The position numbers and the translations under genes are program-made. From Balanoglossus misakiensis (taxonomy: Eukaryota; Animalia; Hemichordata), in contig CM082585.2 in the NCBI GenBank assembly GCA_040954595.2, positions 10,280,564-10,344,563 on the forward strand: a DNA stretch of 64,000 bases, written 5' to 3'. This document shows positions 49,201-58,200 of the stretch, piece after piece. Every line of letters begins with the position of its first letter. Positions within the stretch are counted from its first letter, which is position 1. Below the pieces are notes generated by a model, which was given only the letters and a program-made list of their open reading frames with translations, had not been told where the DNA came from and did no database searches.

Positions 49201-52200
49201 CATCATATACTTGAGAACTTAGAGAAGTACAGTAATATCAGTGAACAATATTGCTCTATGACTGGCAATATAGCCACTCTAGTATATAAATGTGCTAAGA
49301 CAAGCTAAATTTTGTTTTTGGTGTTGTTTGTACTACACAGGGCAAAGACAGCTGTCCAAACAGACGAAAGAGTGAAAATCATGAATGAAATCATTTCAGG
49401 TATGAGAGTCATCAAGATGTATACATGGGAAAAGCCATTTGGGGAGCTCATACGGAAAGTGCGAAGGTAGGATCTGATTAAACTCAAAAACGCTTCTCTG
49501 TGCTGTCATCTTTCCTTTTTTACCTTCTGTCTCTCTGGAACTAAAAGTATGGGAATGGCAGAAACCAGATATTTTCATAGCTCTGCTTCAGCGAACACAT
49601 ACAGATGGATTTTTAAATGTGCATCAGCAACATTTTGACTGGAAGTCAGCATGCCAAAGACATTGCCCTCGGCAATTGTAGCAAGCCTTTAACCCTTCCA
49701 CTGCCATACTTTGATATCTTGTTGTTAACAATGGTATGGTTTAGACCCATCCACTGGGACATGGGGGTGGGAGGGGTGCTGGGACTTCTCTGTGTAATTA
49801 CATGTATCAATAACAAATTTCAAAGTTAAGCGATTATTTAATGAAATAAATATTAAATTATCTTGGTTTATTTGAGTTACCATCCCTTTCACCCCCAGTT
49901 CCCTCTTTAGAGGTCCAACCTTTCCATAGTAAACAATGGGTTTGGAAGGAACCATGATGGTGAAAGGGTTAAACGGTCACCAAAACTCTGCCTTTCCCAT
50001 CTGGAGTAATTGTTGATTTTGAATTGCATGTTTTGTGATAATATTCTTTGAAATGTGTGTGAAATCTTTGTGAAAACTATTTACAGTAATGTCTTGTTTA
50101 TAATTTTTTCTTAGTGAAATGGTTTTCTTGTTTTATGTTAGGCATTGTTTATCTCTTTGAAACTCTCATGCTTGCTGTGTATGAGTCAGGTTAATGCTGT
50201 TGCACTCTCAAACTGACATAAGTCATAAAATCTTCATGGTGCAAAGATTTCTGGATAAAAAAGATTGAATGCGCCAAATTTTGGACAAGAAAATTACAAA
50301 CACATGTTTGAGAGTGTAATACAAGAGCAATCTGTCTATTTTTCAGCCGAAGTATGTCATCAACTATAATGTAAATCATTCATGCCATCAGCAATAGATG
50401 ATCTGAATATTTTAAAGATAATTGCAAACCTGGAACTTGAGCACTTATGTAATCAGTCTGTCTGTATCTATGCCTTTCTCTAACACTGAAAATTCCCCCT
50501 CCCATCCCCTACAGGAATGAGGTGGACAAAATTCAAACTACCAGCAAGTTGCGTGGTTTAAATATGTCCCTGGCCTTTACCATGAACGCGGCGATGATAT
50601 ACTCCATCTTTATAGCATACACACTGCTGGGCAATTCCCTGACAGCCAAACATGTCTTCTATACTGTGACCCTGTACAACACAGTCCGATTTTCTGTGCT
50701 GATAGGGTCTTTTGAAGGTGTAAAGCTATTGTCTGAAGCTCTTATTGCTGCTAAGCGTATACAGGTTAGTTGGCTGGAGTTTGGTGACCCAGAATTCTGC
50801 CATGCTGGGGGGTGGGGTGTGGGTGGGGGGGGGGGGGACATGGTCAGTGGTCAAGTGGTGTGCAGTATGAACACATCAAAGTTGGACGTGTCACATTAAA
50901 ACAAACAAACAAACAAAAATACTTGAAAAACTGACAGGCCGCAATTCAAAGTCATGTATTAGCATAGCATGGTAGGGTTCTGGGTAGCATCTGCGTTTGT
51001 GAATGCAAACATTTACTAACAAGTTGTAGCTACTGTTGGTTGTGTTTTGAATTGCCTTTGCATCATTCTAGAAACCACCGATTGATGTGTTCTTCACACG
51101 GTTTCATACCACATCTGTGTGTTCCTACTAGTCGTAGATAATACTTTGTCTTCTGATAAAGTCTCGAAATCAGCTCTTCACACTAGAAATCATTGTCTTA
51201 TACTATAGTCACTCAAGCGTGTGTAGACTTCCAACAAAAGCTACAGCTCATGTGCATAACCAAAAAACTGCTTTCTAAATGCCTCCCAAGCTTGTTCACG
51301 TAAACGTAAATGCATGCTTCTATTTGCAATTGCCTCTAACAGAGTGGTACACTTGTAGGAGTTTAGTATTTCAGCACAATTTCTCCTGTACAGAAGTTGG
51401 TGTCAACGACTAGGCAGTTAGACTGTTCTAAAGTGCTGTAAACAGATTTTGTTTCCAAAACTAAAAATTAATTCTATACCACAAATACCATCATTACTTA
51501 CTACTATGGTACTACTACATGCATATCTCTGTCGGATTTTTCATCTGTGTTTAATTGTTAAGAACATAGGGCTCTTGCTTTTGTGGATGATGGAAAAAAT
51601 CTGCAATGAATTCCCAATATCTGTACATAATCTTATCTTTAAAAAAGTGGCATATTTAGAGTTAAATAAAGTATGTGATAAACCTTTATGGCCCTGATAT
51701 GGTGTATGTGGCCACGTAGTGTCCCAGGTTTCGAAGTGTATCATGGGAGCTGTAAAGATAAGCAAGGTGGCCCAAATATTTGTTGGTCTGTCATAAGTAC
51801 AAATACATTCAGCATTCTTTAAACAGGCAACATGTATATACATGTCCATTGTGGCTTGATCTTACGATCCCAGCTCGTTCCTGAAGCATGTGACTGTGTT
51901 TGCCAAGTGTGGGCTTGCTAACATTGCAGACCAGAGTTCGACTGTGTTAACTTGAGAAAATTTAGACTTTATTGGTCGGAGCTTGATCAGGTCATGCAGT
52001 CAGAGCTTTATGTTATGTAGTTTTATGTTGACATTTTGTGGGACTAGGAAATGCAGACATCATCGTCGTGGTCAGTCTTTGAAACGGGAACATTGTCTGC
52101 TATCAGTATTAAACATTGTTATGTATTTGCACAGTATTAAAATTGATAATAGGCAGTTTTCAAGGTGACCTTTGAACTTCACACAACACAAACCCTTTCA

Positions 52201-55200: not shown

Positions 55201-58200
55201 GTACAAACGTTTTCTTCACTCAGGTACTTTATCACTAAGAGGGTGCTATACACATCTTGTTGTACCAAAGTCCCTTATTTGTTGACGTGACAGTAGACAG
55301 ATCAATATCGAGGTATGCTGTCAGTCAGTTGAGGTGATTGAGGTCATCTTAATGGTTGTTAAGGGCAATGTGTTGCTAAGTCAACAGGTGTTGGTTGGTC
55401 TTATTCTAGTTGTTAGGGGCAGCGTGTTTCCAGGTCGCGTGTTTCCAGGTCGTGTATCTTCTATTATGGACTCCAGGATTACCGGTACATGACTTTAGAA
55501 TCTAGGGAATCAACAAGTTGTTATGTGTGTGTCTCAAAGTTTTATGTCTGGCGTGTGATTTAGTTAATTACTTTTTGGCAGGGTTAATCCAGCACTCTGT
55601 ATACCAACAGATTTTGTGTTCTTAATGCTAAGATGTGACCAAACTGTAAATGTGCTTTTTTCCATTTTGATTTAAAGTTTTTATAAACAGCTGTACAAAC
55701 TGCTTTCCCTCTACTAACTTTTGCTGCTTTGATGCTACTGCTTAATCTCCGCTAACAACAATGCATGTGCAGGCTGTGTGAAATTAATACAATGCAAATG
55801 ACTGGGTTTAGCCTTGTATTACAGTCGTTCCCATCTGGCTTCGAACGTTCATGTTGATCTAAATGTTATCACACTTGTGTAATTGGTTTGTGAAGTTGAT
55901 TCCAACTTTGCTACAGTTGTTGTACAGTTTATATGCTTTGCGGCAAACACAAACAGGATTAATGGTTTCTTACCCGGTAGGATGCTTCGCCAGTTTGTTT
56001 AAAGTGTAAGACGATCCTCTTACGACACCCGTAATACCCCACTGTTAGTATTGTTATCAATCTCGATATAACCTCTTTGAATTTACCGCAACATCAGCAA
56101 CTGGGCGCCGAAACTGAAGTAAGATAAGGAACAACTTGGCAAACCAAATGTGCAAGTATGGTAACATTTAGATCAACATTATCGTTCGAATCCAGATGGG
56201 AACGATTGTAATGTCCGTCAACATCTCTAAAATTGGTCAATAGAATCGTTACCATCATCGTAATATCTGTCAGTGGCCATACAATATGTGATTAAACATA
56301 TATCAGTCTGTATCTTTGTAAAATCTACCAAAAGCTATTTAATATCTATTAAAAAACTTAAAACAGTCTCATCGCCAAGCAGTGTTAGGCAGTAACCATG
56401 TAATAAATCTTTGTCAGAGGAAGTGTGTTGGCAGTCAGTACACTTAATTAAATATGTCAGCTGAGTGATTTTAGATACTGGCTGTATAGAATGTTGGTAA
56501 TATCTGTCAGTGGCCATGTAATATCTGTCAGTAGCCAGAACAGTTTTTCTTGAATCATTTCATGAGACCTTTAGCATTCAGTAAGGAATATGAGACAGAC
56601 AGACTGATCTTGGTCAAACTAGCAATGATCACATTTTGAACAATTACATAGCCATTGTCAACAAATGCACAAAATAGATGTTAATTCTGCACATTAAAAT
56701 CAATGTTTGTGTCAAGTAATCCATCTTTAGCCAAAATTACTGTTAAACGAGCTAAATTGTAAGTCATTTCTGACCAGTGGATAATTTGTGTCTCATGTGA
56801 CCGAGTTCTGACCAATCACGGTCATTTGTACATCACTGTACTCTCTTCGGATAATGCTTCTAAAAAGGCAGTTTATGTTCTCATTAATAAATTGTTGTTT
56901 AAATTTCTGCACACTCTCTCACTATAAAGTCATAAGAAAATTATCGTCAAAACATAAAGAGAGAGTCTTTAGGAAAATCCATCCTTTTATCTTCTTGAGC
57001 TGCTATGGTCTTGAGCAGCTGTTGTTGGTTGGTTGGTGTAGGTGTGTGTGTAATGAATTCTCTGATCATATCTTTTCAACAGGAAAGAGATTGGATATGT
57101 TGAAGGCTATTTCAACTTGCTGGCTTTTCATAAAATGTGCCGTGAAATGATCGCCCGTGTCATCCTCCTTATGTCATTCGCAGTGTATATATCATACGGA
57201 AATAAAGTCACGTCGAATCGCATATTTTTTCTGTATATGATCATTACGTTTATCGGCCATTCCTTGCTTACTTATACTGTGTACGGATTTCGGGACTTGG
57301 CGCACCTGTCTGTCACGATTGCACGGCTGCAGGTTTGTAGTGTCCTCCATAGTATGCTAATTAATAGGCATTTATTTTGGTTATAAAATCAGTTTGGCGG
57401 TCTAATTTTTGGCTGCCATGTTTTACATATGACTTGATTGTATTGGTCGGTCTGGTCATGTGTGACACGAGGCTTATGAAGTGTTTGGGCCTACAACCTA
57501 CTAAGGGGAGGGGATTTTATCATAGGAGAGCTGTGTCTGTTCCCAAGTATTTCTGTTGGTGAAGACATGGGTCAGAATAGGCCATGTTTTGGCCTGCTTT
57601 ATTTTCATATGTGCATGTAAGTACAATGTACTTCCACTACAGTTATCTTTTCACTTTGTCTGCAAGTAAAATATGAAATCAGACTTGTGCAAGTCGATTT
57701 TTGCTTGTCTGTTTGGGCAAGTGACTGATGTCAAGCAATTGGAATGACTTAGTTGATACAATTGAACCATGCGTAATAGTGAACAACATGTTAGAATTCA
57801 AAACAAGTCTTATACAAGAGCTTAGTCTGTGACGCTTTTAGATGACAGATCTCACCTATCATATAAAATAAAAAATATAAATTTTTATTCAGCATGTTTC
57901 TATATTAATAACAAATTCTCTCTTGTTAACTGTGTAGTTGTTACAAATCCATCTTAGACATCATCTTCTGTAGTACACTGTAGTAGCACTAGCATTTAAC
58001 TTGCATGCGTGGTAACCAAGGAAGTGGCAGAAAGGACATTCCCATCATGCACTGCAAAAGGAAGTGGTGCAAGTAATTCAAACTTGATACAAGGACAATG
58101 TGGCAAGATGTACATATGCATGTCAATTTGTTTCACGAAATGGCTTCAGAAGTGATGATAATCTTGCAAGTTTTTGTGCCGTAAAATTCACAAACTACAA

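Follow-up and report, generated by a model that had tools for sequence, protein, structure and literature searches.

Five alternative ABCC4 exons in an acorn worm and candidate long-range RNA pairings on both sides of the cluster

Introduction

A 64,000-nucleotide (nt) stretch of contig CM082585.2 (assembly GCA_040954595.2, positions 10,280,564 to 10,344,563) from the acorn worm Balanoglossus misakiensis, hereafter the window, holds on its + strand an ABCC4/MRP4 transporter gene that is host to a cluster of five tandem exons, A to E, encoding alternative versions of transmembrane segments 5 and 6 (TM5-TM6). An evenly balanced case can be made that the choice among these exons is biased by bidirectional long-range RNA pairing, in which a predicted downstream helix would favour exon B and a predicted upstream site, U, would favour either C or E. 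This layout is a better candidate than the single downstream docking site with competing selectors that the initial annotation of this DNA had proposed, because the only competing set of partners found above chance lies upstream of exon A. All coordinates are window positions on the + strand, and the features are collected in Table 1.

The exon cluster and its host gene

Judged by length, phase and frame, the exon cluster is real. Each of the five exons measures 250 nt, is bounded by AG and GT, shares a common phase with the others and reads through in frame with the exons on either side, at pairwise DNA identities of 34-47%; a search for a sixth copy found none. The initial annotation had recognised an MRP-type gene with mutually exclusive exons, and the equal lengths, phase and open frame fit this, together with five isoform models in the relative Ptychodera flava. 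The P. flava ABCC4-like gene (XP_070538060-65) has five RefSeq isoforms of 1347 amino acids (aa), which differ solely within aa 301-383 and which, as annotation only, are gene models with one variable exon each. Exons A, D and E have one-to-one partners among them in isoforms X1, X2 and X4 (identity 63, 51 and 73%; support 93/93, 99/99 and 97/94), and for B and C (37 and 30%) the tree leaves the pairing open. On these comparisons the cluster is old, and it is annotated as mutually exclusive in P. flava.

As to the identity of the gene, its nearest named and solved relatives are ABCC4. The five-exon profile matches human ABCC4 residues 305-387 with an E-value of 7e-15 and the homologous helices of MRP1 (aa 535-616) with one of 3e-3, and by this far better match the gene is ABCC4 and not ABCC1. 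One constitutive exon upstream of the cluster is 83% identical to P. flava ABCC4-like and 57% to that of Glandiceps talaboti. Scanned against Pfam, none of the peptides encoded by the five exons gave a match (0/5), and a word-index search with exon A as query was likewise empty (0/94 candidates).

The donors of all five variable exons carry T at position +3, and a purine stands there in all 11 constitutive donors examined, which come from part of the gene only and were chosen beside tblastn ends; by this measure all five variable donors are weak. Of the combinations other than a single exon, all 26 tested (none, two, three or four exons) run into an early stop, which falls no more than 25 nt past the start of the second exon when several are joined and in the downstream exon upon a full skip. 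Two familiar routes to exclusivity were considered and set aside. Steric hindrance, with a branch point too near the upstream donor, does not fit introns of 654-2083 nt with ordinary pyrimidine tracts; the AG-free zones of B and D extend beyond the 57 nt examined, yet, at least by intron length, the donor upstream is hundreds of nt away from them. Incompatibility between U2 and U12 sites finds no footing either, the donors of the cluster being GTTAGT or GTTTGT. These sequences differ from the U12 consensus.

Long-range pairing on both sides of the cluster

Downstream, the element after exon B (53002-53026) pairs with the core of a site in the last intron (57776-57802) over 25 bp, with 24 Watson-Crick pairs, one G-U pair and a 2-nt bulge, at -32.3 kcal/mol (RNAduplex) and a net -22 to -24 kcal/mol once local structure is opened. 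The complementarity of 57766-57805 to this element is just as the initial annotation had described it. Helices were searched under a model that allows at most zero to two defects and simplified loop energies, with RNAduplex values alongside; a model with unbounded loops, which gave sprawling artefactual helices, was dropped. With the dock fixed, none of 500 dinucleotide shuffles reaches the energy of the B helix. With the dock free (the full last intron versus any of four introns), it is equalled in 13/336 shuffles when two defects are allowed, 3/267 when one is allowed, 0/300 by blastn score and 43/227 when none is allowed and only the 16-bp arm counts, with 2/136 in a further control. Shuffling all six introns reproduces the blastn score in 2/150 cases, and real-sequence control segments match the helix in 2/112, or 7/112 with looser helices. 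The B helix is probably, though not certainly, more than chance, at about 0.3-6% by most controls, and by our own classification of the list it is the best long-range inverted match of the window outside repeat copies, microsatellites and local palindromes.

Upstream, a site that is absent from the initial annotation came from ranking all inverted matches in the cluster. The candidate site U lies in the first intron and ends beside a CTAAC that resembles a branch point for exon A. It pairs with 53435-53455 before exon C over 20 bp at -27.4 kcal/mol (net about -10; 0/400 shuffles with U fixed), and with 56580-56608 before exon E over 25 Watson-Crick pairs that include a 14-bp perfect arm, at -30.9 kcal/mol (net -11 to -13; 0/400 and 2/400 shuffles with U fixed). 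The best match to U in 110 kb of other window sequence, at -22.8, is weaker than both partners. A pattern of this kind, in which one first-intron stretch has two partners in different introns, arises in 1/299, 0/172 and 8/379 shuffles for zero, one and two defects. The U helices with the C and E sites share bases and both cross the B helix, and within the B-C intron the downstream-pairing element comes first and the upstream-pairing element second.

How such pairings could bias the choice can be pictured as follows. All five exons would be weak by default, with their +3 T donors, and each would need help. The helix 53002-53026 : 57776-57802 would loop out C-E, cut the effective intron from B to the downstream exon from 5481 to about 680 nt and bring the donor of B close to the next constitutive exon. 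The pairing of U with 53435-53455 would loop out A-B (4025 to about 1020 nt) and that with 56580-56608 would loop out A-D (7616 to about 1460 nt), bringing the acceptor of C or E close to the preceding constitutive exon with the acceptor of A tucked into the loop. Since the two partners of U share bases and both cross the B helix, the three states should tend to exclude each other, and exon A would likely be used when U is free. Transcripts with no exon or more than one, which carry an early stop, would be removed by nonsense-mediated decay (NMD), and the outcome would be five pumps that differ in their substrate pockets.

Table 1. Features of the ABCC4 exon cluster and the pairing sites considered (window positions)
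Feature	Position	Strand	Remarks
Constitutive exon before cluster	49341..49466	+	AG/GT bounds; 93% identity to P. flava ABCC4 aa 258-300
Candidate upstream docking site U	50452..50479	+	pairs 53435-53455 and 56580-56608 on overlapping bases
Variable exon A (250 nt)	50515..50764	+	in frame with flanks; 63% to P. flava isoform X1 segment
Proposed selector A	51043..51053	+	11 Watson-Crick bp, -9.3 to -9.7 kcal/mol, net -1.9; at or near chance
Variable exon B (250 nt)	52588..52837	+	in frame with flanks; best match P. flava X3, 37%
Selector B, downstream-pairing element after exon B	53002..53026	+	25-bp helix with 57776-57802; next-best partner -14.9
Candidate upstream-pairing selector, 37 nt before exon C acceptor	53435..53455	+	20 bp with U
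Variable exon C (250 nt)	53492..53741	+	in frame with flanks; 30% to P. flava X5, no clear one-to-one partner
Proposed selector C	54238..54258	+	9+10 bp around 19-nt bulge, -16.7 kcal/mol; net -7.4 or +9.1 by flank size; at chance
Variable exon D (250 nt)	54750..54999	+	in frame with flanks; 51% to P. flava X2, sister, support 99/99
Proposed selector D	55547..55556	+	10 bp, 3 G-U, -11.6 kcal/mol; net -3 to -4; at chance
Candidate upstream-pairing selector, ~475 nt before exon E acceptor	56580..56608	+	25 Watson-Crick bp with U
Variable exon E (250 nt)	57083..57332	+	in frame with flanks; 73% to P. flava X4, sister, support 97/94
Downstream docking site, core of 57766-57805	57776..57802	+	pairs selector B; bin of single-copy depth
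Constitutive exon after cluster	58319..58435	+	AG/GT bounds; frame kept after any single variable exon

Weighing the alternatives

Several observations weigh against bidirectional pairing. The blastn E-value of the B helix over the full 64 kb is just 0.28, and its significance therefore rests on its position. U and its statistic were picked post hoc, after several ranked lists had been viewed, and the core of U is a short tetranucleotide repeat whose complementary 9-mer occurs five times on the + strand of the window; for both reasons the P-values of U are optimistic. Real segments reproduce the two-partner pattern in 1/112 cases and, with looser helices, in 11/112, and the U helices retain just about -10 to -13 kcal/mol after local structure is opened. 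Before B and D, the best partners of U stay at the level of chance (228-230/400 and 193-222/400); exon D is without a supportable pairing, and the skipping of A during the use of B is unexplained by the model. A metagenome scan for a related locus, for which exon E and its counterpart in P. flava served as queries, gave 600 pattern matches and none confirmed, and the support for the helices consists of sequence statistics from one genome.

The most serious rival holds that exclusivity comes from weak donors, protein regulators and NMD, and that the complementarities are chance in 9 kb of AU-rich, repeat-laden intron. We consider this unlikely, though it deserves to be taken seriously. Every double, triple or quadruple inclusion and the full skip lead to an early stop, and NMD could therefore enforce exclusivity without RNA structure; moreover, several statistics were tried, real-sequence controls match the observed scores in 1-10% of segments, and the whole-window E-value of the B helix points the same way. 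Against it, the B helix and the two-partner U each lie, by most controls, within the 0.3-6% tail, the docks sit in the first and last introns with the crossing order known from the Drosophila gene srp, and NMD alone would presumably waste most transcripts of a five-exon cluster.

A second and distinctly less probable rival takes the B helix alone to be functional, as one RNA bridge that increases the inclusion of exon B and has no competitor. The B helix is the strongest long-range helix of the cluster outside repeats, with the net energy and six-intron shuffle count given above in its favour, but the two-partner U equals or beats it in matched controls. At 50018-50032, upstream of exon A, stands a sequence that nearly repeats the 5' half of selector B (15/16 columns identical; 0/500 shuffles) and is possibly a relic of the duplications. 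Its own pairing with the downstream site would be weak (-13.6 kcal/mol, net -2 to -4) and would place all five exons in the loop; another possible partner is 50941-50961, around exon A. A second downstream dock at 57442-57466, with partners at 52480-52500 and 56794-56816, did not prove robust (15/373, 36/373 and 106/227).

The arrangement first proposed for this DNA, in which selectors after A, B, C and D compete for one downstream dock at 57766-57805 as in insect 14-3-3zeta, is also improbable, and slightly more so. The complementarities of the last-intron site after A, C and D are all present, and the targets do overlap on the dock, yet in part only, A using 57795-57805, D 57786-57795 and B 57776-57802. 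An 8-9-nt word complementary to the dock's 3' arm (with G-U in the case of C) recurs in each of the introns that follow A, B, C and D. In insects, short selectors can be functional. In the dock-fixed test, which counts how many of 500 dinucleotide shuffles per intron reach the claimed energy, A is reached in 497/500, C in 193/500 and D in 458/500, against 0/500 for B; only B does better than shuffled introns, in keeping with the reservation, voiced with the original proposal, that B was strong and the others possibly chance. The most favourable metrics are kinder to A (longest perfect run, 16/400) and to C (uninterrupted helix, 29/400, only with the dock extended to 57766), but the bipartite pairing of C is reached in 113/211 shuffles, and when the last intron is divided into 182 sliding 40-nt segments scored for A, C and D combined, the segment at 57763 comes 149th. 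The net energies of these three pairings (Table 1) are about 15-20 kcal/mol weaker than that of B. In a comparison of alleles among three DNA contig sets from one sample, sequencing run X1 has another base at 54252 in the C site, which breaks a central pair and weakens the duplex from -16.7 to -11.4 unless compensated. With A, C and D at background and B the one selector above chance, the layout of one dock and four selectors, and with it competition at the downstream dock, is not supported.

Least probable by far is that inverted copies flanking exon A of a repeat resembling a miniature inverted-repeat transposable element (MITE) pair, loop A out and so provide the 5' part of the selection of B: the copies at 49882-49972 and 52358-52448 show 84% complementarity across 91 nt (-129.5 kcal/mol), but each lies no more than about 100 nt from an inverted neighbour (-84 and -87), and these local pairings would form first, and inverted pairs are to be expected anyway because the family has 10 matches in the window and a very high read depth.

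The introns of the cluster hold further repeats and local structures. The MITE-like repeat, of about 90 nt with inverted ends, accounts for those 10 blastn matches between 21846 and 58536, with four copies in cluster introns and a diverged fragment at about 49685-49780. In the D-E intron, 55818-55918 and 56112-56212 form a 101-nt inverted repeat, 80% complementary and with raised read depth, which is probably another small transposon. A local hairpin, 50783-50807 : 50965-50991 (-37.5 kcal/mol), begins 19 nt past the donor of exon A, and another, 58038-58062 : 58211-58236 (-31.3 kcal/mol), shortens the stretch from the downstream site to the next acceptor. An inverted match between 55000-55032 and 55668-55700 would, if it forms, cover the donor of exon D.

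Consequences for the protein and isoforms in relatives

The variable segment comprises 83 residues, corresponding to human ABCC4 305-387, and spans TM5-TM6 and the substrate pocket. In the passages of PMC10202912 that deal with the pocket of human MRP4 for prostaglandin E1 (PGE1), it is lined by F324 (TM5), L363 and L367 (TM6), and F368. At these four positions exons A to E encode A/F/I/G, L/Y/Y/A, W/P/E/M, S/L/V/H and R/H/T/Y, a set that differs in every exon. Independently of any RNA mechanism, the cluster thus exchanges residues at four positions that in human MRP4 line the drug pocket, and the five isoforms would be a natural set for learning how pocket sequence sets substrate range.

Among 11 isoform or paralogue groups compared, the same segment is swapped in two, those of Crassostrea virginica and Pecten maximus, and a Sinanodonta model has two copies of the segment in tandem. 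No swap of it was found in Glandiceps, Lineus, Tachypleus and one fish, and in five decapod groups other segments are swapped. In the tree, three of the four bivalve rows cluster with Lineus, away from the acorn-worm exons, and the fourth sits on a long branch whose position is uncertain; a separate duplication of the pocket exon in bivalves and acorn worms is likely on this topology. As a separate observation, equal-length isoforms of decapod ABCC4 (P0308, P0317, P0205, P0329, P0336 and their isoforms) swap about aa 108-173 and 920-948, which suggests further mutually exclusive exons.

Elsewhere in the window, tblastn matches mark a second ABCC-family gene at 20700-31000 on the + strand, which is probably ABCC5-like. 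From the translations of open reading frames, the window presumably also holds an SH3-DH-PH RhoGEF-like gene (2100-4200), a carboxylesterase-like gene (33500-35000), a C-terminal kinesin-like gene (36700-39300) and a gene for a TGF-beta-family precursor-like protein (41800-43700).

Comparison with known systems

Exon choice guided by RNA pairing has been tested mainly in insects. According to PMC6071210 and PMC10790352, 14-3-3zeta, Mhc and MRP1 have downstream docks, and pairing is bidirectional in srp, RIC-3, MRP1 and some Dscam clusters; the account given by Yue et al. (2016, PMC4691838; also PMC6071210) lists exon 4 of Drosophila srp, RIC-3, MRP1, exon 4 of hymenopteran Dscam and exon 9 of lepidopteran Dscam. 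Pairing strength and distance both matter, according to PMC6191721. The present cluster shares with exon 5 of insect 14-3-3zeta and with Mhc (Yang et al. 2011, as outlined in PMC6071210) a dock in the last intron and a selector after a variable exon; it differs in that just one partner is above chance here, with no supported competition at the dock.

Closer in gene family are the MRP clusters of insects and of Branchiostoma, which, as cited in PMC6071210 and PMC8791459, are likewise ABCC-family transporters with tandem duplicated exons; a 'Branchiostoma MRP' is counted among clusters with competing structures in PMC8791459 (citing Yue et al. 2017 RNA Biol 14:1399). By the E-values given above, the gene described here is ABCC4 and not ABCC1. 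P. flava ABCC4-like is a close counterpart, with five isoforms that swap aa 301-383 and one-to-one partners for A, D and E, and it differs, as far as annotation goes, in the lack of a clear partner for B and C. Literature searches on mutually exclusive splicing of ABCC4/MRP4, or in hemichordates or Ptychodera, brought up no publication that by its title or the start of its abstract describes the cluster, nor a published mechanism for the P. flava isoforms, and Yue et al. (2017) may bear on its novelty. It is possible, though we lean against so broad a statement, that a bidirectional pairing switch among five ABCC4 pockets arose in acorn worms, in another MRP paralogue than in insects and independently of them, that the pocket exon was separately duplicated in bivalves, and that TM5-TM6 is a recurrent, splicing-tuned module of specificity.

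The nearest likeness in mechanism is to srp. There, upstream and downstream docking sites stand in the first and last introns, where the acorn-worm cluster has candidates for such sites; both have weak splice sites, and in both the downstream-pairing element precedes the upstream-pairing element in one internal intron and the helices, predicted ones in the acorn worm, cross. For srp, conservation, covariation and compensatory mutants have been shown, whereas the acorn-worm helices are read from the statistics of a single genome, with candidate docks on both sides that have candidate selectors within the cluster, controls at 0.3-10% and a post hoc U; here there are also five exons, three of them with supported pairing, and spans of 3-6 kb, in a deuterostome. 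By analogy, the ABCC4 cluster may work like the srp system through its candidate pairings, and its three sharply defined predicted helices are targets for mutation. A five-exon case in a hemichordate, with sites both upstream and downstream, would carry the bidirectional model over to the deuterostomes.

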